Below are positions 20,411 through 62,828 of a stretch of 64,000 nt of DNA, one piece after another (positions within the stretch are counted from its first letter, which is position 1; the number at the start of each line of letters is the position of its first letter). The translations under genes were made by a program, and so were the position numbers. The DNA lies in contig CAWDKY010000016.1 of assembly GCA_963802945.1 (NCBI GenBank), forward strand, positions 160,001-224,000, in the 5' to 3' direction. This DNA is from an uncultured delta proteobacterium (GTDB lineage Bacteria; Desulfobacterota; RBG-13-43-22). The notes under the pieces are model-generated. The model had not been told where the DNA came from and searched no databases. It worked only from the letters and a program-made list of their open reading frames with translations.

Positions 20411-20496
20411 ATCCAGAATACAGAAGCCAGAAGTCAGAAGAAAAAACCTAAACAAAGAATCCGAAAAAAAATCTTTAATTCTGGATTCTGACTTCT
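20411..20496 (+). repeat. Heptamer tandem-repeat hairpin (CAGAAKY family)
   Basis: ATCCAGA ATACAGA AGCCAGA AGTCAGA ... TTCTGGA TTCTGAC TTCT. Confidence 0.8.
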
Positions 20497-20660
20497 AGTG
20501 TACTGTAACAGTATTCGCTTTACAAGGTTGTCATTCCGGACTTGATCCGGAATCCAGCATTTTCAACCTGGATTCCTGCTGGAGTCTATCCCGCACTTGA
20601 TGCGGGGCAGGAATGACGGATCAGGACTATTGTAAATCTGTTATTAAGACCCTACAATAG
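20495..20660. mobile_element. MITE/REP-like element (CTAGTG...GTCATTCC...GGAATGAC...TGTAAA family)
   Basis: GTCATTCCGG/GGAATGAC palindromic core; ends similar to 27284-27533; shares CTGGAGTCTATCCCGCACTTGATGCGGG with 40751-40778. Confidence 0.7.
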
Positions 20661-20683
20661 CTTCGCTTTTTTGGGGATATTTT

Positions 20684-22132
20684 TTGAGCGAAAAAATAAA
20701 AATCCAAAAATTGGACGATTATCGGTTCCAGATCCCCCGGGAGGGAAAGATGCGGACCGATGGTCTGGTCTTTGTCTCCGAGGCCATGCTTTCTGGTTTA
20801 CAGCAGGATCAAAGCCTCCAGCAGGTAGCCAATGTTGCCTGGCTGCCGGGGATCGTCGGTCCTTCGTTGGCCATGCCGGATATCCATTGGGGCTACGGCT
20901 TCCCCATCGGCGGGGTGGCTGCCTTTGATTCTGAACAAGGGATCGTCTCGCCGGGCGGGGTCGGATACGACATCAACTGTGGGGTGCGTTTACTGCGCTC
21001 CGGGTTGAGCCGCAAAGACTTAGAAGGCCGGATCAAGGAAATCGTCGTCGCCCTGTTTCGAAATATCCCTTCCGGAGTCGGCTCTCACCGTAAAGACTTT
21101 AAACTTTCCATCAATGATCAGGAAAAGGTTTTAAACTTTGGGGCCCGGTGGGCCGTCCAACAGGGTTTCGGCAGCCTGAAAGATCTGGAGCATATTGAAG
21201 AAGGCGGCTGTATCGAAGGGGCCAGGCCGGATCTGGTTTCTGCCAGGGCCTTGGAGCGGGGCAAAGACCAATTAGGCACCCTCGGTTCGGGAAACCACTT
21301 TGTCGAAGTGGGATATGTGGAATCCATTTACGATCCTGAAGCGGCCCGAGGCTTGGGCCTCTTTGATCAACAGGTGACGGTTATGGTCCATACCGGGTCC
21401 CGTGGTCTGGGACACCAGGTCTGTGATGACGCCATTAAAACACTTATCCAGGCCACGGCCAAATACGGCATTGAATTGCCGGACCGGCAATTGTGCTGCG
21501 CCCCTATCCATTCCCCCGAAGGCCGGGACTATTTGGCTGCCATGGCTGCAGCCGCCAACTTCGCCTTTGCCAACCGTCAGATTATTACCCATTGGGTGCA
21601 AGAGACATTGGAGCGGGTCTTGGGTATCGGTCCGAAGGACCTTCAATTGGAACTGATCTATGACCTGTGCCATAATATCGCCAAATTTGAGGATCACCTG
21701 GTGGATGGCCGAATGAAACGATTGTGTGTTCATCGAAAAGGGGCAACCCGGGCCTTCCCGCCCGGCCATCCTCAGATCCCTTCGGATTTCCAAGAGCTGG
21801 GTCAACCGGTCTTGATCCCCGGAGACATGGGCCGTTATTCTTATGTCCTGTTAGGGACCGATCAGGCCATGACCGAGACCTTCGGCAGCGCCTGCCACGG
21901 GGCCGGACGGGTCATGAGCCGTCAGGCCGCCAAAAAAGTGGCCAGAGGCCGGGCCGTGGTTCGGGAAATGGAAGATCAAGGGATCATTGTTCAAGGTGCC
22001 GGCCTGGGAACGATCGTCGAAGAAATCTCAGAGGCCTACAAAGATGTGGCCCAGGTGGTCGAAGTGGTGCACCAAGCCGGCATTGCCAAAAAAGTAGCCC
22101 GGCTGAGACCTATGGGTGTTATTAAAGGATGA
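20684..22132 (+). CDS. rtcB: RNA-splicing ligase RtcB (archaeal/eukaryote-like long form)
   Basis: MPDIHWGYGFPIGG, VGYDINCG, GSGNHF, HTGSRG, HNIAK, HRKGATR and CHGAGR motifs. Confidence 0.97.
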   Translation: MSEKIKIQKLDDYRFQIPREGKMRTDGLVFVSEAMLSGLQQDQSLQQVANVAWLPGIVGPSLAMPDIHWGYGFPIGGVAAFDSEQGIVSPGGVGYDINCGVRLLRSGLSRKDLEGRIKEIVVALFRNIPSGVGSHRKDFKLSINDQEKVLNFGARWAVQQGFGSLKDLEHIEEGGCIEGARPDLVSARALERGKDQLGTLGSGNHFVEVGYVESIYDPEAARGLGLFDQQVTVMVHTGSRGLGHQVCDDAIKTLIQATAKYGIELPDRQLCCAPIHSPEGRDYLAAMAAAANFAFANRQIITHWVQETLERVLGIGPKDLQLELIYDLCHNIAKFEDHLVDGRMKRLCVHRKGATRAFPPGHPQIPSDFQELGQPVLIPGDMGRYSYVLLGTDQAMTETFGSACHGAGRVMSRQAAKKVARGRAVVREMEDQGIIVQGAGLGTIVEEISEAYKDVAQVVEVVHQAGIAKKVARLRPMGVIKG

Positions 22133-22204
22133 CGGCTTTGAAAAATGTCCCATTTAACCGGTTTCTTTAGGTAATTTTTTTTGACTGTCTGAATTTGTTT
22201 TTTT

Positions 22205-24040
22205 TTATCGAATAAATTGGTGGGCGACTTTGCGCAAATCCGGACTTTCCAGGACGTGAAAGAAACGGATTTGGGTCAGCAGGACCGGTGAGAATTGTCC
22301 CAAGGGAAGATAGATGATTTTCCGGCCCTGGTTGTGGGCGAAGGTATGACAAAAGGATCGGGGAGGACGGGCGGCAATATAGGCCACCAGCCGTTCTTCA
22401 CTGTAATCAATGCCGGCCAAAAGCAGCCTCTCGGCCTTGGTTTGGGCCGTATTAAAAAAACGGTCTTTCCAGATGTCATACATACGATAAGGGGGATAAC
22501 TTAAAACAAACCCGCCGTATTCACAGCGGGAGATGCCCGGACCGATGACCTCTTCTCCGGCCGGGGTGGCATAGAAGGCCATATCCGATTCCTGATCGTG
22601 TTCCCCCAGCCAAGTCAATTTCCAGGGATATTGTTCTGGTTTTTCCGGAGCAGGTTCATCTTCATGGAAAATAAAAATCACCGAACCAACCCGGCCGCGC
22701 ACCTGGATCTCTTCCCGGACATAAATCTTTTTTTCGATAACCTGCCGCATCGTTTCCCGGATATCCAGGCCGTCCAGCAGAGACGAAGTAAAGGGGATCA
22801 CCCTGACCTGCTCCTGGGATAAAACCCCCCGGACTTTTTTCTTGACATAATCCCCAAGGCCTTCCACCCGGATATCCTCCGGGGGATAAGAACAGATGTA
22901 TTGGCCTTCCCACTGTTTTTTGTATTTCTCTTTTTCCGTCGTAGAAGGCCGTTTTTTTAAAGGCACAGGCACCAGACGGCGGCGGAAGGTCCGAAAATGT
23001 CGATAAAAACGGATCCGTTTTTGGTTGAGTCGCAGATCTTCGGCCGTTACCTCGATTTCCGGTAATTGGGGTGAGGCCTCCTGAAAAGGATAATGAGAGC
23101 CGATATCCCAAACCTCATAGGCAAAGTTGTCATTGACCATTCCCCGTGAGGCTATCAAAAGTTGGTAAAAATCCGGGAATAAGGCCCCTTGAAGCAAGGC
23201 CAGGTTGCGGGCGAATTTTTTTATCAGGTTCAAGGAATAGACCTCAACTTTTTCCCGGCTGTTTTTCAGATGCGCTTCCCTGGCTCGGTTCAGCAGGTCT
23301 TCCTGAACGGCCAGGCGATTCAGCTCCAAAAAGCCGGAAGCATCAGAAGCAGATCCGGCCCTTTCTTCTTCATATCTTTTCTGCAGAAAGGGCATTTCGG
23401 AGAGGACCTCCCGGCTGGAGGATTCCTTTAGGAAACCTACTAGGACCCCGGATCTTTTCTCCCGTCCCAAAGGCAAGCCCGGATTTTTTTCAAGCTGTTG
23501 AACAATACCTGGCCAGTGGGCCAACCCGCAGACCAGCAGGACCCGCTGGTATCGTTGGTTGAGCTTAAGGGCATGAAAAGCCATGGTTCGTTCCCTCAAG
23601 GCGTCATCCGGGGAAGGGGCCTCCTGTCCCCGTTCTTTCAGATAGGCCAGGCAATAAGGCTGATAGCCGATCCGGGTGACAGCATAGGGATCGGGCATGG
23701 AATCCATCCTTTGAGGATAGCCCTCGGTGTCCCGGTCGACAAAAAAGACCTCAAGATTTTTTTCCAGGCCCAGACGTACGGCCTCAATGATCCCATCCAC
23801 CGGTTCGATGGGCAAATAAACATGGCGACCTGATTTTTCCTGATAGAGGATCACGGAGAGATTGGGAAGTCTTTTGACCGCGGTCAAGACCGGATCCCGT
23901 AGTGTCGGGGGAAGTTCTATGGCCAGGGCTTGAGGCTGGAATTCAATCCATTGTCTGTGGACCTCCAGGGCAAACTCCAGACGGTTGTGGAGAATGGGCA
24001 GAAATTTTATATTTTGATATTGGAAAGGGTTGTCTTTCAT
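22205..24040 (-). CDS. Conserved hypothetical protein; N-terminal TraB/TIKI-like fold inferred
   Basis: 611-aa ORF; motifs PILH, AIELP, FVDRD, RERTMA and VCGLAH appear in TraB/PrgY-like order; C-terminal half unassigned. Confidence 0.6.
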   Translation of the reverse strand: MKDNPFQYQNIKFLPILHNRLEFALEVHRQWIEFQPQALAIELPPTLRDPVLTAVKRLPNLSVILYQEKSGRHVYLPIEPVDGIIEAVRLGLEKNLEVFFVDRDTEGYPQRMDSMPDPYAVTRIGYQPYCLAYLKERGQEAPSPDDALRERTMAFHALKLNQRYQRVLLVCGLAHWPGIVQQLEKNPGLPLGREKRSGVLVGFLKESSSREVLSEMPFLQKRYEEERAGSASDASGFLELNRLAVQEDLLNRAREAHLKNSREKVEVYSLNLIKKFARNLALLQGALFPDFYQLLIASRGMVNDNFAYEVWDIGSHYPFQEASPQLPEIEVTAEDLRLNQKRIRFYRHFRTFRRRLVPVPLKKRPSTTEKEKYKKQWEGQYICSYPPEDIRVEGLGDYVKKKVRGVLSQEQVRVIPFTSSLLDGLDIRETMRQVIEKKIYVREEIQVRGRVGSVIFIFHEDEPAPEKPEQYPWKLTWLGEHDQESDMAFYATPAGEEVIGPGISRCEYGGFVLSYPPYRMYDIWKDRFFNTAQTKAERLLLAGIDYSEERLVAYIAARPPRSFCHTFAHNQGRKIIYLPLGQFSPVLLTQIRFFHVLESPDLRKVAHQFIR

Positions 24041-24102
24041 GATAAGATCGTATCATGATATGAAATGATAATCTCCCAAAAAATAAAGGAGAGGACAGTG
24101 CT

Positions 24103-24765
24103 ATGACTATCTTCGAAGATGAATTAAGCGATCTCAAGGTACAGATCCTGAAGATGGGATCTCTGGTGGAAGAGGCCATCGTCCGGTCCATTAAATCTCT
24201 GGTGGAACGAAACAGCGCCTTGGCCCATCAGGTGATTGAAGATGATGTTCGCATCAACTCCTATGATGTGAAAATTGACGAGGAATGCATCCGGCTCATT
24301 GCCCTCCGCCAGCCCACGGCCGGCGACTTGCGATTTGTAACCACGGCCATGAAGATCACCACGGATCTGGAACGGATGGGGGATTATGCTGTTGATATCT
24401 GCGAAAGGGCCTTGGAACTTAATGAGGAACCTCAGCTTAAACCCTATATTGATATCCCTCGGATGGCCGAGATTGCCGAGGGGATGGTCCACGATGCCCT
24501 TCAGGCCTTCCTGGGAAAAAACACCGCCCTGGCCTATGAAGTGGTCAACAGGGATGATGAGGTGGATCAACTTACCGTGCAGATCTTTAATGAACTTTTA
24601 CTTTTTATGATTAAAGACAGCTCGACCATAACCCGGGCCATCAAGATCTCATACATTTCAAAATACCTGGAGCGGATTGCCGACCACGCCACCAATGTTG
24701 CCGAGATGGTGGTCTATATGATCGAAGGTAAGATGATCCGGCATATCAAGGACCTGGAAGAGTAA
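24103..24765 (+). CDS. phoU: Phosphate signalling complex protein PhoU
   Basis: LRQPTAGDLR, DLERMGDYA and YLERIADHATN motifs; GGAGAGG RBS. Confidence 0.96.
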   Translation: MTIFEDELSDLKVQILKMGSLVEEAIVRSIKSLVERNSALAHQVIEDDVRINSYDVKIDEECIRLIALRQPTAGDLRFVTTAMKITTDLERMGDYAVDICERALELNEEPQLKPYIDIPRMAEIAEGMVHDALQAFLGKNTALAYEVVNRDDEVDQLTVQIFNELLLFMIKDSSTITRAIKISYISKYLERIADHATNVAEMVVYMIEGKMIRHIKDLEE

Positions 24766-24814
24766 TCATAACATCCCACCCCAGTAAAAATCCATTTAAG
24801 GGAAACATATCACC

Positions 24815-25381
24815 ATGAGCACCTTAAAGGAACTAATCCCGGAAAACCCGGTCCATGAACGAAAGCTCGATATCTATACCTATCCTTTGGAAAACGGGCA
24901 GGTTGTCGTTGAAGGCTGGCTTCGGGACGAACGGCTGATTACCGGATATAACCGCGACGGCCGCTCCCGCCCGCCGGGCGTGGTTCATTGGATTGGCGTT
25001 CGTTTGCTCCTGGGAGGCCGGCCCATCACCATTCTTGAAGCCGAGGCGGAAATGCCCATTGTCCCTCACAAGCTATGCCCAACCGTAGCCGAGACTGTTA
25101 AGAAAATTGTCGGCCTGCCTATTGTTGCTGGGTTCAGCGATCAGGTACGCAAAAGATTGTACGGGGTGGAGGGATGCAGTCATCTGATGCACCTTATCCT
25201 GGCCATGGGTCCGGCAGGTCTGCACGGATACTGGGCCAGTCAGAACCGCAAGCCCCGTTCTGCCCCGCATTCTTTCGAAGATACTCCCGATCTGGAATAC
25301 CTGATCAACAGTTGCCAACTATGGAGAGAAGACGGACCGTTGATCCGGCAGATCCGGGAAACCTTAAAAAAAACCGAATAG
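24815..25381 (+). CDS. DUF2889 domain protein
   Basis: HERKL, EGWLRD, CP, GCSHL and LINSC pattern. Confidence 0.8.
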   Translation: MSTLKELIPENPVHERKLDIYTYPLENGQVVVEGWLRDERLITGYNRDGRSRPPGVVHWIGVRLLLGGRPITILEAEAEMPIVPHKLCPTVAETVKKIVGLPIVAGFSDQVRKRLYGVEGCSHLMHLILAMGPAGLHGYWASQNRKPRSAPHSFEDTPDLEYLINSCQLWREDGPLIRQIRETLKKTE

Positions 25382-25464
25382 CTTGACATTCCGCCCATAA
25401 ATGATTATTGAATAACCAACCTTAAAAGGATAAGGGTGATTTATTTTCTTAATCCAGCCATTTT

Positions 25465-26409
25465 ATGATTGAAGTTGAACAATTAACCAAATATTACGGT
25501 TTGCTGCCGGCCATTTCCGATCTTTCTTTTTCCGTTGGACAAGGGGAGGTGGTCGGCTTTTTAGGGCCCAATGGGGCAGGGAAAACCACCACCCTTAAAA
25601 TACTGACCTGTTTTCTCCCTCCTACATCCGGTAAAGTCCGAGTCAATGGCCTGGATGTCTCTCAGGATTCTTTAAAGATCCGGGAGCAATTGGGCTACTT
25701 GCCGGAAAATGTTCCCTTATACAACGAAATGACCGTCGAACGGTTTCTGGCATTTGCCGCCCAGGCCAAGGGAATTAGGGCCAAGGCCATCAAGTCGAGC
25801 CTGGATAAGGTCTTAGAGGACTGTGGCTTGCAGAAGGTCCGGGGCCGCATTATCGGGCATCTTTCTAAGGGATTTAAACAGCGAGTCGGACTGGCCCAGG
25901 CCCTTTTGAATAATCCTCCGGTCCTTATCCTGGATGAACCGACCATAGGACTGGACCCGGCCCAGGTGGTGGAGATAAGAGAATTGATCCGGTCGTTGGG
26001 CCGGGAACGAACCATTATTTTAAGCACGCATATCCTGCCCGAGGTCAGTCAAATCTGTCAGAAGGTGATCATCATCAATCGGGGCCGGATTGTGGCCATC
26101 GATACGGTTTCCAATCTGACAGCCCAGGTACAGACCTCACGCAAAATCCATTTAAACATTCAGGGTCCTGAGGAAGAGGTTTTACAAGCTCTGGGGTCCC
26201 AAAAAGGGGTCTTGAAGGCTGATAAAGAATCCGATGACGGTTCTGGAAGGTATGTGGTGGAGATGGAGAAGGATCAAGACATAAGGGCCGACCTGGCACG
26301 ATCAGTCGTTGAAAGGGGATGGGGATTGTTGGAGATGCACAGCCAGGAACTCAGTCTGGAAGAGGTCTTTGTCCAGTTGGTTACCGAAGAACCGGGAGGC
26401 CAGGCATGA
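25465..26409 (+). CDS. ABC transporter ATP-binding protein (GldA-like)
   Basis: GPNGAGKT, LSKGFKQR and LILDEPT motifs. Confidence 0.92.
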   Translation: MIEVEQLTKYYGLLPAISDLSFSVGQGEVVGFLGPNGAGKTTTLKILTCFLPPTSGKVRVNGLDVSQDSLKIREQLGYLPENVPLYNEMTVERFLAFAAQAKGIRAKAIKSSLDKVLEDCGLQKVRGRIIGHLSKGFKQRVGLAQALLNNPPVLILDEPTIGLDPAQVVEIRELIRSLGRERTIILSTHILPEVSQICQKVIIINRGRIVAIDTVSNLTAQVQTSRKIHLNIQGPEEEVLQALGSQKGVLKADKESDDGSGRYVVEMEKDQDIRADLARSVVERGWGLLEMHSQELSLEEVFVQLVTEEPGGQA

Positions 26410-27176
26410 AGGGATTTACAGCGATCTTCAAGCGGGAACTGTATGCCTTTTTCGCTTCCCCTATTTTTTATGTGATAGGGACTATCTTTCTGGCCCTGAG
26501 CGGCTATTTTTTTTATACCTCCGTGGCCTACTACAGTCTGATCAGTTTCCAGGCTGTCCAGAATCCCTATATGGGTGGGCAGGTCAATTTGAATGAGATG
26601 GTTGTCAAACCTCTATTTGACGATATGAGTATCATCCTGCTGTTGATTGTCCCTTTGCTGACCATGCGTCTTTTGGCCGAAGAAAAGAAAAACGGGACCA
26701 TTGAGCTCCTTCTGACCTATCCCGTACGGGAATTGGCCGTGGTGCTGGGAAAATATTTGGCTACGTTGTTGGTCATCGTCATCTTACTGGCCTTGACCGC
26801 CATCAATATTTTGATGATATCCCGGTTTGGGATTCTAGAGTGGGGGCCTGTTTTAACCGGCTATGGCGGGCTGATTTTACTGGCCGCCGCATTTGTTTCT
26901 CTGGGCCTGTTTGCCTCGGCCTTGACCCAGAACCAGATTATCGCTGCGGTCCTGGGATTCGGGGCTTTGCTTATGTTCTGGATCATCGGTTGGAGTGGTT
27001 CGGTCTCCGGTCCGGGAATTGGCAAGGTGGTCAATTACCTGTCCCTATTGGAGCACCAAGATCCGTTTACCAAAGGCATTTTGGATACTCGGGATATTAT
27101 CTATTACCTGACTTTTTTGGTATTTTTTATTTTTTTGACCTTGCGCTATCTGGATTCGCAGAAGATCAGGGGATGA
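26406..27176 (+). CDS. ABC-2 permease (GldF-like)
   Basis: KRELYAFFASP, TMRLLAEEKKNGTIELLLTYP and TQNQI motifs; ATG overlaps the upstream stop. Confidence 0.9.
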   Translation: MKGFTAIFKRELYAFFASPIFYVIGTIFLALSGYFFYTSVAYYSLISFQAVQNPYMGGQVNLNEMVVKPLFDDMSIILLLIVPLLTMRLLAEEKKNGTIELLLTYPVRELAVVLGKYLATLLVIVILLALTAINILMISRFGILEWGPVLTGYGGLILLAAAFVSLGLFASALTQNQIIAAVLGFGALLMFWIIGWSGSVSGPGIGKVVNYLSLLEHQDPFTKGILDTRDIIYYLTFLVFFIFLTLRYLDSQKIRG

Positions 27177-27180
27177 GAAC

Positions 27181-27274
27181 ATTGCGGATTTCAGAATTTG
27201 GATTGCGGAATTTGGAATACTGAATAGAAGGGGAAAATTTTTTTGATCTGGTTTTCACTTGAATCCTTGAACCC
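27181..27274 (+). repeat. Heptamer tandem repeat (TTGCGGA/ATTTGGA) followed by CTTGAAT-type units
   Basis: TTGCGGA TTTCAGA ATTTGGA TTGCGGA ATTTGGA ATACTGA; then CTTGAATCCTTGAACCCT. Confidence 0.65.
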
Positions 27275-27283
27275 TATTTCGTA

Positions 27284-27533
27284 CTAGTGAAGTGTAAGAG
27301 CAATCACTTTACATTCTTGTCATTCCGGACTAGGAGACTGTGTCGCAATTATATTTTTGTCATTCCGTGCAAGCGAAGCGCGACACGGAATCCAGTATTT
27401 CCATTAAGTTCTGGATGCCGGCTTTCGCCGGCATGACGGCTTTGATGGCGCTGTCCGCTATTACGACACAGTCTCTCCGCGGGAATGACGGCATGAGGAA
27501 TATTGTAAACCTGTTATTGAGACACCTCACAAG
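27284..27533. mobile_element. Nested MITEs: outer CTAGTG/GTCATTCC element with an inner element at 27334-27475
   Basis: Inner TIRs GAGACTGTGTCGCAAT / ATTACGACACAGTCTC (15/16); outer ends resemble 20495-20660. Confidence 0.75.
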
Positions 27534-28976: not shown

Positions 28977-29509
28977 ATTTAAAGAAGCTCTGGATATACC
29001 TCTCCATCCTGGTGGTGGTGGCCGGTCTGTGGGCGGCATCAGAATTTATTTTTCCTAAGAAAACGGAAGAATCGAAATCCCCGTCCCTTTTTTCCAATCT
29101 GCAAGCCGACAAAATTCAGGAAATAGAATGGCAAAGAGGCTCGGAGATTGTTCACCTGAAAAAAAACAAGGATTGGGAGATCATTCGGCCGATATCAGCT
29201 GCGGCCGATGCCCTGGTGGTGGAAAACATACTCCGTACTTTAAGCTCCCTTAAGCCGGAAAGGAGTTTTCCCTCTTCAGAACAGACCTTGAAAGAATTCG
29301 GTCTGGATTCACCTGGTGTAAAACTCCTTTTTTTGAACCAGGGGAAATGGTTTGAAATTCAGGTGGGAAATAAAACAGCGGTCGGCAATGGCTACTATGT
29401 CAGGTCCTCCAATTCAACAGACCTTTTTTTAATCCAGGACTTTCCTGTCCGTGAACTGGATCGGGACCTTTCGGCCCTGAAAGAAAAAAAGGTCAAGGAA
29501 GGTCCTTGA
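28973..29509 (+). CDS. DUF4340 domain protein
   Basis: N-terminal anchor, W.I..P, EFGLDSP and VGNKT..G..YYV; follows gldG; GTG start. Confidence 0.8.
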   Translation: MNLKKLWIYLSILVVVAGLWAASEFIFPKKTEESKSPSLFSNLQADKIQEIEWQRGSEIVHLKKNKDWEIIRPISAAADALVVENILRTLSSLKPERSFPSSEQTLKEFGLDSPGVKLLFLNQGKWFEIQVGNKTAVGNGYYVRSSNSTDLFLIQDFPVRELDRDLSALKEKKVKEGP

Positions 29510-29880
29510 TGTCCAAGATATTAAGCTGTTTAAAAAAAAGGGATTTGTTGCATAACCCCAATATCAACGCTGATGAACTGGCTCAATACGGATGGGAGTA
29601 TTTAAAGCAGGATCGGCCGGTCGATGCCCTGGATTTTTTTGAAAAGGCCCAGAACCAGGAAGGGATTCGGCGAATCAGGGAATGGAGCCTGGAGCAAGGG
29701 GATCCTTTTCTGTTGCAACAAACCAGTAAAATGCTGAAGGAGCAGGTCCCTGAAGAATCGTGGAGGAAGGTCGGAGAAAAAGCCAAGGCCGCCGGCCGGC
29801 ATCAACAGGCCTTGACGGCTTTTAAGGCCGTTGCCGACGAGGAAAAAATTCAGGAGATCCAGACTTTGATGAAGAGATAA
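29509..29880 (+). CDS. Hypothetical helical (TPR-like) protein
   Basis: About 124-aa helical ORF coupled to the upstream gene. Confidence 0.6.
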   Translation: MSKILSCLKKRDLLHNPNINADELAQYGWEYLKQDRPVDALDFFEKAQNQEGIRRIREWSLEQGDPFLLQQTSKMLKEQVPEESWRKVGEKAKAAGRHQQALTAFKAVADEEKIQEIQTLMKR

Positions 29881-29910: not shown

Positions 29911-29970
29911 GGGTGGTGGAGTGGTGGACTGGAAAAAACAATACTCCAATACTCCATTACTCCACTACCA
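29911..29970 (+). repeat. Octamer tandem-repeat hairpin
   Basis: GTGGTGGA GTGGTGGA CTGGA ... AATACTCC AATACTCC ATTACTCC ACTACC. Confidence 0.75.
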
Positions 29971-29991
29971 CAATTAAAAAGCATTAGCTAA

Positions 29992-31125
<1,134 letters not shown>

Positions 31126-42187: not shown

Positions 42188-42278
42188 TATTGAATGTCGA
42201 ATAACGAATGATGAATGTATAGGTTAGGCAAAAACAAATCCATTCATGATTCGAAATTCGATGTTCGAAATTCAATAT
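42188..42278 (+). repeat. Heptamer tandem-repeat hairpin (NNGAATR family)
   Basis: TTGAATG TCGAATA ACGAATG ATGAATG ... TTCATGA TTCGAAA TTCGATG TTCGAAA TTCAATA. Confidence 0.8.
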
Positions 42279-43291: not shown

Positions 43292-43383
43292 GAATCTGGA
43301 ATCCAGGAGTCAGAATTCAGTATAAAATTTCTTCTTTCTTTTATTGTTTTCATTCTGAATTCTGACTCCTGGATTCCAGATTC
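43292..43383 (+). repeat. Heptamer tandem-repeat hairpin with perfect 29-bp arms
   Basis: GAATCTGGAATCCAGGAGTCAGAATTCAG (43292-43320) and its exact reverse complement (43355-43383); 34-nt AT-rich loop. Confidence 0.9.
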
Positions 43384-43407: not shown

Positions 43408-43929
43408 ATGAAAATGAGGAAAAACAAGTCAGCCCCGTTGGTTGGGATCGTCATGGGCAGTGATTCCGATCTGCCGGTCATGGAAGGTGCGGCGAAGGTA
43501 TTGAGGGAATTTAACATCCCTTATGAGTTGATGGTCTCCTCGGCCCATCGCTCCCCCAAGAAGACCGCCGAATTTGCTCGAAAGGCTGCGGAACGCGGTT
43601 TCAAGGTAATCATCGCCGGGGCCGGAGCGGCGGCCCATCTGGCCGGCGTCCTGGCGGCGGAGACCACCCTGCCGGTTATCGGAGTGCCTATCGACTCTTC
43701 TTCTTTAAAAGGTTTAGATTCTCTTTTGGCCGTGGTTCAAATGCCCTCGGGCATCCCTGTGGCCACTATGGCCATCGGGGCCGCCGGGGCCAAAAATGCC
43801 GCCATCCTGGCCGCTCAGATCTTGGCTTTGAACTCCCCCTCTCTGGCCTCGGCCTTGAAAACCTACAAACAGAAACTGGAAACCGAGGTTTGGGAAAAAC
43901 ACAAAAAGATACACACCATCTGGCCATAA
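43408..43929 (+). CDS. purE: N5-carboxyaminoimidazole ribonucleotide mutase
   Basis: MGSDSD, SAHRSP, AGAAAHL and QMPSGIPVAT motifs. Confidence 0.97.
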   Translation: MKMRKNKSAPLVGIVMGSDSDLPVMEGAAKVLREFNIPYELMVSSAHRSPKKTAEFARKAAERGFKVIIAGAGAAAHLAGVLAAETTLPVIGVPIDSSSLKGLDSLLAVVQMPSGIPVATMAIGAAGAKNAAILAAQILALNSPSLASALKTYKQKLETEVWEKHKKIHTIWP

Positions 43930-43939
43930 AATCGGGCAG

Positions 43940-44032
43940 AAGGCGCAAGGTATACGGTATAAGGTTTTAACCCTGAACCTTACACATTGAACCTTGGACC
44001 TTTTGGGGCCCCTTGGCTCCTTGAATCTTTGA
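43940..44032 (+). repeat. Heptamer tandem-repeat hairpin (AAGGTNN family) plus CCTTG-type units
   Basis: AAGGCGC AAGGTAT ACGGTAT AAGGTT ... AACCCTG AACCTTA CACATTG AACCTTG. Confidence 0.75.
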
Positions 44033-45318: not shown

Positions 45319-45404
45319 CCGAACTCCGAACTCTGAACCCCGAACTTTTTCATATGGTTCGCCTTTGGTTCTCTCTCCGAACTCCGAACTCAAAACTCCG
45401 AACT
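45319..45404 (+). repeat. Two tandem arrays of the CCGAACT heptamer
   Basis: CCGAACT CCGAACT CTGAACC CCGAACT and CCGAACT CCGAACT CAAAACT CCGAACT. Confidence 0.8.
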
Positions 45405-49084: not shown

Positions 49085-49315
49085 TTTTTTGCCTCCAGCA
49101 AAAAAACCTTGACTTCCCCCCTTTTCCCTTATTTTCATAACATTACCTTTGGTCTTTCAACTTTGAGGTTCAAGTTTCTTTTTTTCGACGACGACGAACG
49201 CTGAACGTCGAACGTCCTTTAAAACCCTTTCACCTATATTTGTGAAGTTAACATTTCTTGCTTTTTGAAGAAAGTTCCCGACTACATGGCCGGTTGAAGT
49301 GGTAGCGGAGCAAAT
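49085..49315 (+). repeat. Spacer repeats A+B, copy 2, adjacent to each other
   Basis: Imperfect direct repeat of 45404-45475 followed about 20 nt later by a repeat of 46003-46200. Confidence 0.75.
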
Positions 49316-55478: not shown

Positions 55479-55511
55479 TTTTTATTGATAACAGAACTCT
55501 TTCAATGGGTC

Positions 55512-55617
55512 GATACTGGATAAAACCAAAAACCGATACTGGATACTTGATAAAAACCTCGCATCCGGTATCTAGCATCAAGTATCCAGTATCCGCAGTT
55601 TGATCCAGTATCCAGTA
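55512..55617 (+). repeat. Heptamer tandem-repeat hairpin (GATACTG family)
   Basis: GATACTG GATACTT GATA ... GCATCCG GTATCTA GCATCAA GTATCCA GTATCC ... ATCCAGTATCCAGTA. Confidence 0.8.
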
Positions 55618-55892
55618 ATTGCCGATGGGACTTCATCAGCCCTTCATCTCCGATAGAACCCCTTTTCTACTCGAGCCGTTATCAAAGAAATACGCCATTT
55701 CCCCTTGACCAGGATAATGGGTTGTTATATAAAAGAAAATGACGAACAGGATTTAGGCCCCAAGGGTTCAAAGATTCCTGGGTTACAGGGAAAATGTTCA
55801 GAAATTACAACGAGCTGAATGTTTAGGAAAAGACTGAGAAGATTTTTTGATTGTTTGATTTTTTTCGGCAGGTTGCTTAGGCAAGTATTTTT

Positions 55893-56270
55893 ATGATTTA
55901 TGGTATTGGGGTCGATTTGGTGAAGATGTCCAGAATCCAGGCAGCCATGGAAACCTGGGGGGAACGATTTCAACAAAAGATCTTCACCGAAAAAGAGCGA
56001 TCCCTGTGCTTAAGCAAACCCCGTCCCACCCGCTATTGGGCCATGCGCTTCGCAGCCAAAGAGGCCTTCTCCAAGGCAATCGGGTTGGGAATGCGGCATG
56101 GAATTTTTTGGAAGGATATTGAGGTAACCTCCGATTCTTTCGGGAAACCGGAACTGAGGCTTTATGGTCAAGCCCGTGAAATCTGCGCTCGAGTTGGAAT
56201 TAAAAACAGTTTTTTAACCTTAAGCGACGAAGACGGTTACGCAGTGGCCGTGGTGGTTCTGGAAGTATAA
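55893..56270 (+). CDS. acpS: Holo-[acyl-carrier-protein] synthase
   Basis: GIGVDLV, RFAAKEAFSKA.G and GKP motifs. Confidence 0.96.
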   Translation: MIYGIGVDLVKMSRIQAAMETWGERFQQKIFTEKERSLCLSKPRPTRYWAMRFAAKEAFSKAIGLGMRHGIFWKDIEVTSDSFGKPELRLYGQAREICARVGIKNSFLTLSDEDGYAVAVVVLEV

Positions 56271-56275
56271 ACAAA

Positions 56276-56334
56276 CTGGAATCCAGAATCCAGGAGCCAG
56301 TAGTCAGAATAAAGGCCTTATATTCTGGATTCCT
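56276..56334 (+). repeat. Heptamer tandem-repeat hairpin (CAGAAKY family)
   Basis: CTGGAAT CCAGAAT CCAGGAG CCAGTAG TCAGAAT ... ATTCTGGATTCCT. Confidence 0.75.
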
Positions 56335-56350
56335 TCTTAGGTGTATTACT

Positions 56351-57949
56351 ATGATCTTAGCTACAGCCCAACAAATGAAACAACTGGATCAACGGACCAT
56401 TGAAGAGTTCGGCTTGCCGGGACCGGTCCTGATGGAAAATGCAGCCCGCGGGGCGGTCCAGATGATCCAAAGTCATTATCCTCAGGCCAGATCTATAGCC
56501 GTCTTCTGCGGAAAAGGAAACAATGGGGGAGATGGTTTGGTCATAGCTCGTTATTTCCATTCTCTGGGTCTAAAAGCAAAGGTCTATTTAGCCGGAGCGA
56601 AGAGGGAATTGAAAGGTGATGCCGCTCTTCAACTCCTTCTGACGGACAAACTGAAGGTCCCTTTGGTTGAATTAACCGACAAAATGGATCTTCCGGCCCT
56701 AAGGCATGAATTAATCCAATACGACCTTTTAGTGGACGCCCTTTTAGGGACCGGATTGGAAAAGAATGTCCAAGGTCTTTTTCGAAACGTGATCCAGTTG
56801 ATAAACGAGCTTCCCTTGCCAAAAATAGCGATCGACATCCCTTCCGGTTTATCTTCCGACAGTGGCCAACCCCTTGGATTATGCACCCTGTCCGATTTGA
56901 CCGTCACTTTCGGCTTGCCCAAGGTCGGTCAAGTCTTGTTTCCCGGATGCCGTTTTGTGGGAAGGCTTTTTTGGGTCGATATCGGCATTCCACCGATGTT
57001 CTATCCCCCTGCAAATGAACGGGTGGAATTACTGGAGCCCAAAACCCTGGCCCCATTCCTGCCCAAGAGAGATCCCGAAGGCCACAAGGGTCTTTATGGT
57101 CATGTGCTAGTATTAGCCGGTTCGAAAGGTAAAACCGGGGCCGCGGCCATGACCTGCCTGGGGGCCTTGCGGGCCGGGGCCGGATTGGTGACCTTGGGTA
57201 TACCGGAAAGTTTAAATGCCATCATGGAAGTCAAATTGACCGAGGCCATGACCGAACCTCTGCCCGAAGGGCAATCAGGGACTTTAGGCCCAAAGGCCCT
57301 CAAAAGAATCCAGTCCCTTTGTGAGGGGAAAAAGGCTCTGGCCGTTGGCCCCGGTCTTTCCCAATCCCAGGGGACCAAGTCTTTAGTACAAACTCTGCTA
57401 AAGCGATTAAAAGACATCCCGTTGGTCCTCGATGCTGACGGATTGAATGCCCTGGCTGACAATCCGCAAACATTAAAGACCCTGACCGGCCGGGCCATTT
57501 TAACTCCCCATCCGGGGGAGATGTCGCGATTGTCAGGACAATCGGTTAAGGAAATTCAGGCCGACCGCATCCAATCGGCCCGTGCCTTTGCCAGAAAATA
57601 TGGAGTGGTCGTTGTTTTAAAGGGGGCCAGAACCGTCATTGCCGATCCGGAAGGGCCGGTTTATCTGAATCCTGTGGCCCATTCGATATTGGCCAGCGGT
57701 GGAACCGGAGATATTTTAACCGGTTTGATCCTTGGTCTGTTGGCCCAAGGATTGTCCCTGACCGAAGCCGCTTGTCTGGGGGTGTTCCTCCACGGACAGG
57801 CCGGGACCTGGCTGGCCCGCGAGCGAGGGGGGCAGGGGATTCTGGCTTCGGAATTATTGGAAAAAATTCCCAGGCTTCTTTCTCAAAAGGACTACTGGGA
57901 TTGCCCGGAAACAGAGCCCATTCCGTTGATCCGGGAGGTGAAGTTGTAG
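56351..57949 (+). CDS. nnr: Bifunctional NAD(P)H-hydrate epimerase/dehydratase
   Basis: LMENA, GKGNNGGDG, DALLGTG, DIPSG, HKG.YG, DADGLN, TPHPGE and GGTGDIL motifs. Confidence 0.95.
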   Translation: MILATAQQMKQLDQRTIEEFGLPGPVLMENAARGAVQMIQSHYPQARSIAVFCGKGNNGGDGLVIARYFHSLGLKAKVYLAGAKRELKGDAALQLLLTDKLKVPLVELTDKMDLPALRHELIQYDLLVDALLGTGLEKNVQGLFRNVIQLINELPLPKIAIDIPSGLSSDSGQPLGLCTLSDLTVTFGLPKVGQVLFPGCRFVGRLFWVDIGIPPMFYPPANERVELLEPKTLAPFLPKRDPEGHKGLYGHVLVLAGSKGKTGAAAMTCLGALRAGAGLVTLGIPESLNAIMEVKLTEAMTEPLPEGQSGTLGPKALKRIQSLCEGKKALAVGPGLSQSQGTKSLVQTLLKRLKDIPLVLDADGLNALADNPQTLKTLTGRAILTPHPGEMSRLSGQSVKEIQADRIQSARAFARKYGVVVVLKGARTVIADPEGPVYLNPVAHSILASGGTGDILTGLILGLLAQGLSLTEAACLGVFLHGQAGTWLARERGGQGILASELLEKIPRLLSQKDYWDCPETEPIPLIREVKL

Positions 57950-58017
57950 ACACCTAGAATTTGGAATATGAGAATTTATCCATCACCATTTTGCAACCAG
58001 ATTTTTTATACAAAGCT

Positions 58018-58117
58018 TGGAATCCAGGAGTCAGGAGTCAGAATCCAGAATATAATCATAAGGCGGTGCTACGATATATCTTCATTCTGAATTCTGACTT
58101 CTGGATTCTGAATTCCA
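58018..58117 (+). repeat. Heptamer tandem-repeat hairpin (CAGAAKY family)
   Basis: 34-nt arms TGGAATCCAGGAGTCAGGAGTCAGAATCCAGAAT / ATTCTGAATTCTGACTTCTGGATTCTGAATTCCA. Confidence 0.85.
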
Positions 58118-58200
58118 ATATACATTTTGTTGGGTTGGTTTAACTTACTCCTGTTTTTTTATTTCTTAAATTGAATAACTACTCTGCTTAGGAGCCCGTT

Positions 58201-58650
58201 ATGATCCAGGCCAAAGATATCATGACTCAGGAAGTCATTACCGTTAAGGAAGACACCCCGATCTCTGAGGTGGCTCAAATCCTGACCGAAAAACATATCA
58301 GCGGGGTGCCTGTTTTGAATCCCGAAAAAGAGATGGTTGGGATCGTTTGTGAAAGTGACATTATCGACCAGACCAAACGATTACATCTGCCGACCGTGAT
58401 TAATTTAATGGGTTATATCGTTTTTTTGGAAAGCGGAAAAAAATTTGAGAAAGAATTGAAAAAAATGATAGGTCTGGCGGCTGCAGACATCATGACCCGA
58501 ACGGTCAAAACCGTCTCCCCAGAGACTTCGTTGGAAGAAATAGCCACGCTCATGGCCGAAAACCGTGTTCATTCCATCCCGGTCCTTAGAGGAAAAGATC
58601 TGGTTGGGATCATAGGCAAGAAGGATATTATCCGTTCTTTGGCTAGATAA
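58201..58650 (+). CDS. CBS domain pair protein
   Basis: AKDIMT, ISGVPV, GIV..SD, DIMT and LVGII motifs. Confidence 0.9.
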   Translation: MIQAKDIMTQEVITVKEDTPISEVAQILTEKHISGVPVLNPEKEMVGIVCESDIIDQTKRLHLPTVINLMGYIVFLESGKKFEKELKKMIGLAAADIMTRTVKTVSPETSLEEIATLMAENRVHSIPVLRGKDLVGIIGKKDIIRSLAR

Positions 58651-58661
58651 AGGATGCATCT

Positions 58662-59153
58662 TTGGAAGAGTCCATCCTTGAAGTGATGGTTGAAAGTGAA
58701 GAGGCCACGGAACAACTGGGCCGTAAATTAGCTTCTTTGCTTTCACCCGGAGATGTGATCGCCCTCCATGGAGAATTAGGGGCCGGGAAAACTTGTCTGG
58801 TTCACGGCCTGTCCAAAGGTCTGGGGATTGAAGAAGGGTTTGTAGCCAGTCCTTCTTTTTCTTTAATTAATGAATATCCGGGACCCAGTCCTCTTTTTCA
58901 TATCGACTGTTATCGCCTCCATTTGGAAGAGGAAATCCAGGAACTCGGGCTGGAAGAATATTTCGACGGTCCTGGAATCACGGTCATTGAATGGGCCGAA
59001 CGGATCAGAGATTTGCCGGAAGAGCGGCTGGATATTTCATTCACCATTGTGGATGAATCCCGGAGACAAATTCAGGTTAAAGGATCCGGGGCATGGGTCA
59101 AACGTTTGCAAAATTGGAATCTTAAATTTCAGAATCCAGGAGTTGGAAGTTAG
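58662..59153 (+). CDS. tsaE: tRNA threonylcarbamoyladenosine biosynthesis ATPase
   Basis: GELGAGKT, SPSF, HIDCYRL and IEWAE motifs. Confidence 0.95.
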   Translation: MEESILEVMVESEEATEQLGRKLASLLSPGDVIALHGELGAGKTCLVHGLSKGLGIEEGFVASPSFSLINEYPGPSPLFHIDCYRLHLEEEIQELGLEEYFDGPGITVIEWAERIRDLPEERLDISFTIVDESRRQIQVKGSGAWVKRLQNWNLKFQNPGVGS

Positions 59154-59216
59154 AAGTCGGAAGTAAAACGGACTGGCAAAGAGTTTTTTTCTTCTGGATT
59201 CTGAATCCTGACTTCT
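59128..59216 (+). repeat. Heptamer tandem-repeat hairpin overlapping the tsaE 3' end
   Basis: TTCAGAA TCCAGGA GTTGGAA GTTAGAA GTCGGAA ... CTTCTGG ATTCTGA ATCCTGA CTTCT. Confidence 0.8.
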
Positions 59217-59265
59217 ATATTCTATCTTGAAAAAATAATATTTTTTTCTAGTGAGGAGGAATTTC

Positions 59266-60490
59266 ATGTCCCTGATTGTTCAAAAATATGGTGGGACCTC
59301 AGTCGGCTCCTTAGAAAAAATTCGTAATGTGGCTGAGCGGGTCATCGAAATGAAGAAAAAAGGCCACGATATGGTGGTCGTCCTTTCGGCCATGTCGGGA
59401 GAAACGGACAGACTGATCCGATTGGCCTATGAGATAACCGGATCGCCCAATCCTCGAGAATTGGATGTCCTGCTTTCCACCGGAGAACAGGTTTCGGTGG
59501 CCCTGTGCAGCATGACTATCCAAAGCCTGGGATTCAAAGCCTCGTCCCTTTTAGGGCATCAGGTCAGGATTGTTACCGATGAGGCTTATGGCCGGGCCAG
59601 GATCAGCGAGATTGATACCCGGCGGATTATGGAAGAGATAAGAAAAGACAACATTGTGGTCGTGGCCGGCTTTCAAGGCCAGGATGAAAAAGGGAATATC
59701 ACCACCCTTGGCCGGGGGGGTTCGGATACCACGGCCGTGGCTGTGGCTGCCGCCTTAAAAGCCCAGGTCTGCGAGATTTTTACCGATGTGGAAGGGGTCT
59801 ATACATCGGACCCCAATATCTGTCCCAAGGCCAGAAAGATGAAAAAAATCTCCTATGAAGAAATGCTGGAAATGGCCAGTCTGGGGGCAAAAGTCCTGGA
59901 GATTCGATCGGTGGAATTTGCTAAAAAATTTAAGGTCCCGGTACACGTACGCTCGACCTTTACCAATAAGGAGGGAACAATGGTGGTTCAAGAAGATAAA
60001 AGCATGGAAAAGATCTTGGTTTCAGGAGTCACTTACAACAAAAATGAGGCGCGGATTACCATTACCAAGGTGCCGGATCGTCCGGGGATTGCCACCAAGA
60101 TATTTTCTCCCCATCTCTGAAGCAGGGGTAGTGGTGGACATGATCATCCAGAATACCAGTGCCGAAGGGTTGGCCAATGTGACCTTTACGGTATCTAAAA
60201 ACGATTATAAAAAAACCATGACTATCGTTAAAAAAGTGGCCAAGGAGATCAAGGCCGAACAGGTCCTGGGAGACGAAAACATCGCCAAGGTTTCCATCGT
60301 CGGATTGGGGATGCGCAACCACGCCGGAGTGGCCACCACCATGTTTTCTGCCCTGGCTAAAGAAGGGATCAACATCCTGATGATTTCCACCTCTGAGATC
60401 AAGATCTCCTGCGTCATCGAAGAGAAATATACCGAACTGGCAGTAAGAACCTTGCACAGTGCTTTTAATTTGGATGAAGAACTGAAATAA
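59266..60490 (+). CDS. lysC: Aspartate kinase (single frameshift near 60110, probably an assembly indel)
   Basis: [21 protein letters not shown] and [10 protein letters not shown] motifs; two ACT domains ([21 protein letters not shown]). Confidence 0.95.
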
Positions 60491-60497
60491 TTTGTGC

Positions 60498-60581
60498 AGG
60501 TTCAAGGTGTAAGGTGCAAGGCTTTTGATTCAAGAGTTATTTCTTTCCGTATTTCTACCGTGCAACGTTTACCGTTTACCT
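60498..60581 (+). repeat. Heptamer tandem-repeat hairpin (AAGGTNN family)
   Basis: AGGTTC AAGGTGT AAGGTGC AAGG ... ACCGTGC AACGTTT ACCGTTT ACCT. Confidence 0.7.
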
Positions 60582-60606
60582 AAGACCAAAAGGTGTTGAG
60601 TAACCC

Positions 60607-62191
60607 ATGAAACCCATCGATATCTACGATTGTACCCTACGGGATGGAACCCAGGCCGAGGATTTTAATCTGTCGGTCGAAGACAAAATCCGAATCGCCA
60701 AAAAACTCGACGAATTGGGACTCGCTTATATCGAAGGAGGTTGGCCGGGGTCCAATCCCAAGGATGTGGAATTTTTTAAGGCCATGAAAGGGATTTCCCT
60801 TAAACAGGCCCTGCTCTCGGCCTTTGGAAGTACCCATAATCCAAAGACCCAACCGGCGAAAGATCCCAATCTGAAGGCCCTGCTCCAGGCCCGGACCCCG
60901 GTCGTCACGATCTTCGGCAAGAGCTGGGATGTCCATGTCCGGGACGCTTTGCGCATCACTTTGGAAAGAAACCTCCGGATTATCGAAGACTCCCTGGCCC
61001 TGGTTCGGCCTAAAGTGAGCAAACTCTTTTACGATGCCGAACATTTTTTCGACGGCTATCAAGCCAACCCGGAATACGCCCTGGCCACTTTAAAAGCCGC
61101 AATTCGGGCCAAGGTGGATTGCCTGATCCTTTGTGACACCAACGGCGGGACTTTGCCCGGCAAATTAGCCTCCATTATCCAGGCCGTTAAGAAAGAAATT
61201 AAAGGGACCCCCCTGGGAATTCACGCCCATAACGACTGCGACTGTTCCGTGGCTAATGTAGTGGCTGCTGTGGAATTGGGTATCAGGCATGTGCAGGGAA
61301 CGATCAATGGATTCGGGGATCGCTGTGGCAATGCCAATCTTTGTTCCATCATTCCCAACTTGCAATTGAAACTCGGGTTGCCGGTTCTGAAGCCCGATCA
61401 GCTTAAAAAAATCCGGGACGTCTCCCGGTTCGTCGATGAACTGGCCAATATCCGTCAGAATAAATATCAACCTTATGTGGGGGACAGTGCCTTCTCCCAT
61501 AAAGGTGGAATCCATGTCAGTGCCGTAGTAAAAAATCCGGAAACCTATGAACATATCCGTCCGGAGTTGGTTGGGAATGTTCAAAGAATCCTGGTCTCGG
61601 ATCTGGCCGGCCGGAGCAACATCCTTTCTAAAGCCAAAGGGTATGGGCTGGATGTATCCAGCAAGGATCCGGCAGTATCCACCATCCTGTCATCAGTTAA
61701 AGGAATTGGAACATCAAGGATTCCAGTATGAAGGGGCTGAAGGTTCATTTGAATTATTAATGAATCGGGCCATGGGCGACCGTCAGCAATATTTTGATCT
61801 GGAATGGTATCGGGTTACTGTTCAGAAAGTTCGGGAAGACCAGCCTCCCATAGTTGAAGCGAGCATTATCGTCAAGGTCAAAGATCAGGTTGAACATACG
61901 GCCGCCCTGGGAAATGGTCCGGTCAATGCTTTGGACAATGCCTTAAGAAAGGCCTTGCTGCGTTTTTATCCGGAATTAAATGAAATGAGTCTGGACGACT
62001 ATAAAGTCCGTGTCCTGTCCAGTGTCGAAGGGACGGGGGCTCGGGTCAGGGTCCTGATCGAATCTGGAGACAGAGAAGACAAATGGGGGACGGTCGGGGT
62101 TTCCACCGACATCCTGGAGGCCTCCTGGCAGGCCCTGGTGGACAGCATTACCTATAAACTGTATAAGGAAGAAAAGAAAACCAAAAAATGA
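60607..62191 (+). CDS. cimA: Citramalate synthase (single frameshift near 61695)
   Basis: DCTLRDG.Q.E, EGGWPGSNPKD, YDAEHFFDG, HAHND, HKGGIH and YEGAEGSFEL motifs; C-terminal GNGPVNALD...DYKVR regulatory domain. Confidence 0.92.
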
Positions 62192-62775
62192 CTTCTCGGA
62201 ACTCCCTCATTCCCGAATTCACCCGTCTCCGGCAAAAAGGGCTTTTTATTTTTTCCATTTTAATTCTGGGTTTTATTGGATTCCAATATTGGGCAATGGA
62301 TCAAAAACCAAACTTGCCGGGAAACACCCCTTGGCCTGAAATAATTATAACGATTGAACTTAACGGTGAAGTCAATAGGCCCGGCCTCATCTCCTATTCT
62401 CAACCGACTATGATTCAACAAGTGATCCAGGATGCCGGAGGGTTTCCTATAAATCAAATTTTATCTTCAAAAGAGGGAACAAGAATCCTCGATCAGGATA
62501 CGACCTTGACGGTTACATCTAAGGATCATGGAATTCTCATCCTGCAGGATTCCCTGTCAGCTAAAGCCCTCTGGGTCCTCGGGAGACCCATTCCGCTTAA
62601 CCGGGCCACTAAAGAGGACCTGGACCGGCTTCCCGGGATCGGCCCCAGCCTGGCCCAGCGTATTGTTGAATACCGGGAGAAGCGTGGAGGATTTTCATCA
62701 TTGGATGAATTAATGGGAGTAAACGGCATCAAAGAAAAGACCTTTAAGAAAATAAAAGGGTATCTGACCTTATAG
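62188..62775 (+). CDS. comEA: ComEA family DNA-binding protein (SLBB + helix-hairpin-helix)
   Basis: GEVNRPG, LNRAT.EDLDRLPGIGPSLAQRIVEYRE..G.F and VNGI motifs. Confidence 0.85.
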   Translation: MTSRNSLIPEFTRLRQKGLFIFSILILGFIGFQYWAMDQKPNLPGNTPWPEIIITIELNGEVNRPGLISYSQPTMIQQVIQDAGGFPINQILSSKEGTRILDQDTTLTVTSKDHGILILQDSLSAKALWVLGRPIPLNRATKEDLDRLPGIGPSLAQRIVEYREKRGGFSSLDELMGVNGIKEKTFKKIKGYLTL

Positions 62776-62828
62776 CTGAAAGCTGAAAGCCGAAAGGAAA
62801 TTCGGTTCTTCAAACCTTGGGCTTTCAG
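62774..62828 (+). repeat. Heptamer tandem repeat (AGCTGAA family) with short complementary arm
   Basis: AGCTGAA AGCTGAA AGCCGAA AG ... GCTTTCAG. Confidence 0.65.

Follow-up and report, generated by a model that had tools for sequence, protein, structure and literature searches.

Periodic hairpins between housekeeping genes of an uncultured bacterium are probably reduced copies of a mobile intervening-sequence-type cassette

Thirteen tandem arrays of 7- or 8-nucleotide units, most of them folding into hairpins, lie between protein-coding genes in a window of 64,000 nucleotides (positions 160001-224000 of contig C16) from an uncultured bacterium whose 4.37-Mb genome, here G000, is assembled in 72 contigs and whose closest public relatives are metagenome-assembled genomes (MAGs) of Thermodesulfobacteriota (BirA 94% identical in the nearest one). 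These elements, whose units fall into families lettered A to H, are probably gene-less, shortened or decayed copies, akin to miniature inverted-repeat transposable elements (MITEs), of a mobile family of cassettes of the intervening-sequence (IVS) type. A full cassette would consist of 3-9 purine-rich heptamers or octamers on its 5' side, a short leader, a gene of ~120 codons for a four-helix-bundle protein (PF05635/TIGR02436) and a mirrored, reverse-complement run of the same units.

The association between arrays and gene is apparent in G000 itself, where a profile search found six matches to PF05635, the "23S rRNA intervening-sequence protein" family. Inverted arrays flank five of these and belong to families G, A, B, C and E, which are also families of gene-less hairpins, while the sixth is a weak match within a 249-amino-acid frame without arrays. 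A PF05635 open reading frame (ORF) is thus carried by five cassettes elsewhere in the genome and by none of the 13 window elements, which contain no ORF of any kind because their loops are too short (4-188 nt genome-wide). PF05635 is encoded by 26 of the 31 genomes searched, G000 and all 13 congeners among them, at 3-15 matches per genome. In a survey of 34 loci from 24 genomes of the phylum (29 from relatives and five from G000), arrays were present on both sides of the gene in 27 loci and on one side only in the other seven, bearing out the statement of an earlier note, made from the window sequence alone, that 7-mer flanks surround four-helix-bundle cargo genes. The two sides carry the same inverted unit (≤2 mismatches) with the same period in 26 of the 27 two-sided loci. 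On a tree of 33 proteins, from which G000_C14 was omitted as a frame of only 89 amino acids, the 19 arm-unit labels require 18 changes, which is the minimum, the lowest count among 300 shuffles being 22. The arm unit follows the protein clade, arms and gene being inherited together as lineages; as kin share labels, this match shows co-inheritance and not binding of the arms by the protein. The protein matches TIGR02436 and the solved XCC0516 structure 2GSC, and its gene is under purifying selection (pN/pS 0.09-0.27 in eight pairs computed of 17, nine having been skipped for unequal matched lengths). In 26 of 32 loci the gene points the same way as both of its neighbours, and in none is it antisense between co-directional ones, which suggests that it depends on read-through from the host operon.

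The junction between pfk and tsaD, ~160 nt beyond the window's end, provides the most complete record of how these elements change, and aligning it across relatives, a check proposed in the earlier note, did uncover filled, gene-less and absent alleles. The closest relative (G005) has no element and a spacer of ~25 nt; G000 has a gene-less hairpin of an AGGCAAC-type family, G002 a tiny gene-less ATTGCGG hairpin, and G003, G008, G011 and G012 a gene-less hairpin of family B, accompanied in G012 by a further insert. In G001, G006 and G007 the junction is filled by a PF05635 gene within ATTGCGG arms, and G009 retains the ATTGCGG arms, but of the gene no more than the final ~35 codons (80% identity to G006 over 258 nt). 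The junction is nested in G004 and G010, where a CGTTCGG-arm cassette with another PF05635 gene sits inside ATTGCGG arms, one family within the arms of another. Copies have been gained, lost, internally deleted and nested at this one place. Pieces of the cassette interior also persist in gene-less hairpins of family G in G000, the loops of which share a core of ~30 nt, in both orientations relative to host genes, corresponding to the leader and start codon of the cassette at C33:67699-67731. Because gene-less hairpins keep such interior pieces, in part at least they are reduced copies and not vacant attachment sites, so that the mobile-cassette idea of the earlier note holds while its term "empty sites" is poor wording.

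A single cassette lineage can also occupy unrelated sites from one genome to the next. Five genomes each carry a copy of the octamer lineage; two of these copies are nearly identical, and all occupy different sites given that none of the ten pairs has flanking genes in common. The family A pair likewise lies at different sites. Turnover of the arms themselves is evident at acpS|nnr, where all eight congeners examined have a periodic hairpin, of family A (as in the window) in three, B in three, D in one and G in one, and where, among three genomes of other genera, the spacer is 4 nt long in one and 37 nt in another and the third has a different repeat. The family E hairpin at thiC|birA is common to the window and the nearest relative; of the other congeners, four have short bare spacers and two have other inserts. 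A further comparison concerns the spacer between cimA and a ferredoxin-like gene, in which G007 and G009 (L051 and L049) have chimeric elements in which a 5' arm of family D precedes a 3' arm of family B, and G011 has an orphan B arm beside a complete D hairpin, suggesting deletions between adjacent elements. This ferredoxin-like gene of ~60 codons, encoding two CxxC-type motifs, lies at cimA|comEA (window ~62188; loci L038-L052) in most relatives with heptamer hairpins on both sides, and is missing from the window and the closest relative.

Elements of this type are abundant throughout G000. Tandem Repeats Finder (TRF) reported 546 period-7, 300 period-8 and 88 period-6 rows, compared to 102, 149 and 35, respectively, after a dinucleotide-preserving shuffle of the genome. 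The intergenic share is 73% for period-7 and 64% for period-8 rows, against ~20% for the genome, 20% for period-6 rows and 20-28% for periods 6 and 9. A strict scan for intergenic hairpins with periodic arms returned 44 at period 7, 10 at period 8 and none at other periods, and a second, relaxed scan at least 80 and at least 20, respectively, versus five at period 5 and four at period 6; both scans were ungapped and recovered 3 of the 10 window hairpins, which makes the genome counts minimum values. For each gene-bearing copy there are ~20 gene-less ones. The 5' arm is purine-rich in 92 of 100 hairpins genome-wide, in agreement with the earlier note's purine-rich arm first on the mRNA strand. 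This order does not show an orientation, however: whichever strand of a complementary inverted repeat is read, its 5' arm is the same, and purine-first is therefore an intrinsic polarity of the element, uninformative on transcription. Alongside this polarity, AGGA, GGAG or AAGG is present in 55 of the 100. In 200-kb samples of non-independent genomes, three same-phylum relatives without PF05635 had 2.0-3.5 period-7 rows per 100 kb, which is chance level, and no periodic hairpins, and four genomes with PF05635 had 7-18 rows per 100 kb, two of them with periodic hairpins.

All 13 window arrays were found where the earlier note had placed them, both by reading the sequence and by TRF (Table 1; elements are named in the text by the starts that note gave). 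They comprise 3-6 degenerate heptamers, or octamers at 29911, with a short unrelated stretch separating them, in most cases, from their mirrored reverse complement. When each element was folded as RNA and compared with 200 shuffles, ten formed hairpins: six strongly, with no shuffle reaching the observed value (29911, 42188, 43292, 55512, 56276, 58018), and four moderately (20411, 43940, 59128, 62774). The remaining three (27181, 45319, 60498) fold no better than shuffles, so that "mostly hairpins" stands for 10 of 13; of these three, 27181 and 45319 had been recognised as lacking a proper partner arm, and 60498 is a third, its partner arm having decayed. In the ten that fold, the terminal inverted repeats with tandem heptamers have arms of up to 36 nt that are 94% complementary, and a separate inverted-repeat search placed the elements near the top of the window's inverted repeats in both length and pairing. 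Rfam at gathering thresholds gave no match in the window.

Table 1. Periodic elements of the window, with flanking genes as checked with Pfam and folding z-scores from 200 shuffles
Window position	Element	Location	Folding z	Remarks
20411..20498	Family A (CAGAATC-type) heptamer hairpin	archease/RtcB spacer	-2.8	Followed by a different MITE-like repeat
27181..27225	Orphan 5'-type array, ATTGCGG/ATTTGGA units	ABC-2 permease/ABC auxiliary gene spacer	-0.5	No partner arm
29911..29972	Family H octamer hairpin, TGGAGTAA-type	unnamed ORF/dnaJ	-5.8	
42188..42277	Family E (CGAATAT-type) hairpin	thiC/birA	-5.1	Present in nearest relative, absent from four congeners
43292..43383	Family A hairpin	birA/purE	-12.5	36-nt arms, 94% complementary
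43936..44005	Family B (AAGGTTC-type) hairpin	purE/TIGR00375-like gene	-2.4	Other heptamer family there in nearest relative
45319..45404	Two direct arrays, family D 3'-arm type (reverse complement of GAGTTCG)		-0.3	No hairpin
49191..49216	Orphan heptamer array, CGAACGT-type	within "accessory" stretch		
55503..55621	Family C (GGATACT-type) nested hairpin	ubiA/acpS	-7.6	60-140 nt match dispersed copies in G000 and congeners
56276..56333	Family A hairpin	acpS/nnr	-4.2	Four different families at this junction among eight congeners
58017..58118	Family A hairpin	nnr/CBS	-5.2	35-nt arms
59131..59222	Family A variant hairpin	tsaE/lysC	-3.0	
60494..60585	Decayed family B element	lysC/cimA	-0.3	Arms now unpaired
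62774..62828	Family F (GCTGAAA-type) hairpin	comEA/pfk	-2.6	Same family there in most congeners

The unit sequences had been described as completely different and the families as unrelated, which does not hold: five elements share family A (units CAGAATC/CAGGAGT/CAGAAGT; 20411, 43292, 56276, 58018, 59128) and two share family B (AAGGTTC; 43940, 60498), the rest having units GGATACT (C), the complement of GAGTTCG (D), CGAATAT (E), GCTGAAA (F), the octamer TGGAGTAA (H) and the ATTGCGG-type orphan. Every family recurs genome-wide, together with the octamer family G (AAGGATTC/AAGGGGTC). Units of families B, D, E, G and H have 5-6 conserved and 1-2 free positions; position profiles of A and C are unusable because the reverse complement of C is one mismatch from A, so that the two sets are mixed. 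All 13 elements sit between protein genes, and the junction counts of the earlier note, four in acpS-nnr-CBS-tsaE-lysC-cimA and three in thiC-birA-purE-next gene, were right, although its name endoQ for that next gene has behind it a TIGR00375 match below cut-off. The accessory regions in which it saw none are not quite empty, one of them containing the orphan array at 49191-49216.

Several points weigh against the cassette reading. Families D, F and H form hairpins in G000 and have no gene-bearing copy in its 72-contig assembly, and four other clades (U1, U4, U5, U6) are found at orthologous sites, as simple vertical descent explains. No transposase or reverse transcriptase is tied to the elements, nor an integrase, though no integrase search was made, and we know of no DNA-cutting activity in the four-helix-bundle fold; the mobility of the cassette is for these reasons inferred solely by comparison across genomes. 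No match to RVT_1 (reverse transcriptase) was found in G000, and retro-mobility by means of a resident reverse transcriptase was rejected. The gene set of G000 came from a crude longest-ORF caller (3994 genes, 80% coding), the relatives are mutually non-independent and their 200-kb samples small, and the low recovery of the ungapped scans bears on every genome-wide hairpin count.

A rather unlikely alternative is that the elements are intercistronic RNA stems selected by the host for processing or stabilising operon mRNA, the link to the cassette being incidental. REP (repetitive extragenic palindromic) elements in E. coli process or stabilise operon mRNA, and the placement of the hairpins here would suit such a role, as the median distance is 19 nt from the upstream stop codon to the hairpin and 44 nt from the hairpin to the next start. 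The scan of orientation against transcription proposed in the earlier note found period-7/8 hairpins to be abundant and gave a divided answer: the 97 classified hairpins lie at 77 co-directional, 12 convergent and 8 divergent junctions, a co-directional excess that is significant against the 61/15/20 expected from intergenic length (p 0.002) but not against the 70/14/13 expected from junction count (p 0.22). The presence of some periodic hairpin at acpS|nnr in all eight congeners despite differing families also favours host-selected stems, while the 4-40 nt spacers of other genera at this junction, the bare pfk|tsaD spacer of the nearest relative, the family G cores in both orientations and the loss of pairing in 3 of the 13 window elements argue against them. 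Nor is there a wobble signature. Of the mismatches at the 1694 stem positions of the 77 co-directional hairpins, 44 are G·U when read on the sense strand, against 49 A·C (p 0.68), and a further 106 are of other kinds; as G·U shows no excess over A·C, no sign of selection on the sense-strand RNA is visible.

The two arms of an element mirror one another even at variable unit positions, which points to copying of one arm from the other at the DNA level; under the cassette reading, inverted duplication or template switching, and not selection for RNA pairing, would keep the arms mirrored. Within operon transcripts, we infer by analogy with the Coxiella 23S rRNA IVS that stems of 20-36 bp may be substrates of RNase III, for which G000 has one gene, in which case the host would be affected mainly through cleavage of its polycistronic mRNA at the junction.

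We also considered whether the PF05635 protein forms a ring that binds its own heptamers sequence-specifically, and that either copies the cassette into hairpin tips or controls at least 100 junctions in trans, which we regard as unlikely. A trans-acting network in which each four-helix-bundle ring binds cognate heptamer arrays in RNA or DNA, one repeat per subunit, and thereby controls many junctions seems to us quite unlikely. Binding of one repeat per subunit has an analogy in TRAP (the trp RNA-binding attenuation protein) on triplet repeats. Such a network is consistent with a distinct unit for each protein clade, the purifying selection on the protein and the mixture of conserved and free positions in the units of families B, D, E, G and H. 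The homologue 2GSC was deposited with five chains, the available text of a Coxiella paper cites a homopentamer (PMC4990558), and unnamed heptamer-repeat binders are proposed in the available text of papers on Beggiatoaceae (PMC4679880) and Nostoc (bioRxiv 10.1101/2022.06.06.494920). Co-inheritance of arms and gene alone, however, gives the same match between clade and unit, families D, F and H are without a cognate gene in the assembly, and array copy numbers show no preference for five. If a ring binder did copy the cassette, it would represent a new, transposase-free way of moving DNA; in either form, the 7-nt period found in so many phyla would trace back to a single protein family, as its footprint.

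Neutral microsatellite slippage or ordinary intrinsic terminators, the refuting possibility named in the earlier note, are very improbable and already largely refuted by the recurrence of families together with the gene association. Slippage can create tandem short units, and at least four T occur within 12 nt past the stem in 20 of 77 hairpins. The enrichment is nevertheless limited to periods 7 and 8, the arms are mirrored even at variable positions, a handful of families recur with common non-periodic cores, and there is a tight association with one gene family. A consensus terminator and promoter scan of 54-64 kb gave counts at shuffle level and flagged a single element, with one weak 5-pair stem on the minus strand inside 56276. 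The short GC-rich stem and U run of intrinsic terminators do not describe these hairpins, given their median arm of 21 nt, 43% GC and T runs in the 20 of 77. Scarcely credible is movement of REP/REPIN-type repeats by a RAYT (REP-associated tyrosine) transposase of the Y1/HUH type: like those repeats, the elements here are palindromes in the intergenic space of operon junctions, and 10 Y1_Tnp matches occur in G000, but just two of these genes have a period-7/8 array within 500 nt, weak (2-3 copies) and of unrelated units, compared to a background of 27% of genes. The Y1 genes are not associated with the arrays, and we reject this reading.

The closest resemblance among known systems is to the IVS of 23S rRNA. 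According to the available text of PMC4990558, the Coxiella burnetii IVS has a 28-bp terminal stem and three tandem heptamers, variable in number among strains, before the S23p start, and RNase III was found by experiment to cut at the first repeat; the same text cites ORF-bearing 23S rRNA IVSs of Leptospira and others. Shared with the cassettes described here are the PF05635/S23p four-helix-bundle ORF between terminal inverted repeats forming a long stem and the variable-number tandem heptamers in the 5' part of that stem, and the Coxiella IVS is regarded there as selfish. Its ORF is reported in that text to be decaying, unlike the ORF here, which is under purifying selection. Furthermore, the present elements occupy mRNA spacers between protein genes rather than 23S rRNA helices, most copies are without an ORF, and many unit families coexist in one genome.

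Short tandemly repeated repetitive (STRR) heptanucleotide sequences, reportedly described by Mazel et al. in 1990 from heterocystous cyanobacteria, are said to form several intergenic, abundant families of unknown function. The elements here are STRR-like in being abundant intergenic tandem heptamers of few families (546 period-7 rows against 102 shuffled, 73% intergenic), and differ in their host, a member of the Thermodesulfobacteriota rather than a heterocystous cyanobacterium, and in hairpin pairing and a cassette gene, neither of which is known to belong to the STRR description. MITEs are similar in that many short gene-less copies keep the ends and interior remnants of a few gene-bearing copies, as do the family G loops and the C33 leader, and in the internal-deletion intermediate of G009; unlike MITEs, the gene-bearing form has no recognisable transposase, its cargo being a four-helix-bundle protein, and the ends are tandem repeat arrays instead of unique terminal repeats. 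REP, BIME (bacterial interspersed mosaic element) and REPIN (REP doublets forming hairpins) sequences are likewise palindromes at operon junctions, from which the present elements differ by lacking a RAYT association and by having periodic arms of many sequence families. Integron attC cassettes, with one attC per cassette and IntI, appear to differ in architecture from the two mirrored arms per gene seen here.

Direct TAACTGA repeats in Beggiatoaceae, cyanobacteria and Bacteroidetes, as set out in the available text of MacGregor (PMC4679880), occur in 2-6 copies ending a few bases before start codons, with a patchy spread across phyla that suggests horizontal transfer; 169 direct sets, one indirect repeat and a single dominant unit are recorded there, and its text is without the terms "intervening" and "Deltaproteobacteria". 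The available text of a Nostoc preprint (bioRxiv 10.1101/2022.06.06.494920) describes intergenic heptamer arrays near start codons. TAACTGA repeats, as MacGregor presents them, resemble our elements as intergenic heptamer arrays, without the hairpin architecture. PF05635 resembles Avd in the available text of a survey of diversity-generating retroelements (DGRs; PMC10053308), a related fold family; the cassette protein matches NF033474 at 22.6 bits, far below the cut-off of 80, and with no reverse transcriptase found in the genome, identity with DGR Avd was rejected.

Other features were noted in or near the window. A different MITE-like repeat with inner palindromes GTCATTCCGG...CCGGAATGAC adjoins two of the heptamer elements (window 20498-20660 and 27310-27510); one copy lies in the loop of a family A hairpin at C29:189318-189539 of G000, and related copies occupy junctions in relatives (L003, G011). 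Six relatives have a PurD-PurE fusion after the birA hairpin (595 amino acids in L001, 5178-6965). The window gene at 43408-43929 has the same start codon as this fusion with ~420 PurD codons missing, and the only other PurD-like match in G000 is 28% identical, so that the window purE reflects either an in-frame purD deletion or a gap in purine synthesis. Both lysC (59251-60490) and cimA (60607-62191) are split into two overlapping frames, each with one 1-base gap relative to the closest relative, which are either real frameshifts or assembly errors. An ORF of 611 codons at 22205-24040 (minus strand) and one of 124 codons at 29506-29880 (plus strand) have no Pfam or NCBIfam match.

We found no publication that connects PF05635 cassettes with dispersed intergenic heptamer hairpins; many subscription papers, the original STRR work among them, lay beyond the search, and earlier publication of this link cannot be excluded. 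The reading presented here ties together two old puzzles, intergenic tandem heptamers and rRNA intervening sequences with their "S23p" protein, both described for decades and unexplained, because arm families are shared between copies that have the gene and copies that lack it, and every intermediate state can be seen at one junction. A descriptive puzzle thereby becomes testable, as to whether RNase III cuts the stems, whether the protein binds its own repeats and what moves the cassette without a transposase. For annotation, it matters that in many uncultured bacteria the stop-to-start space of housekeeping operons is occupied by these elements, which change more rapidly than the neighbouring genes.

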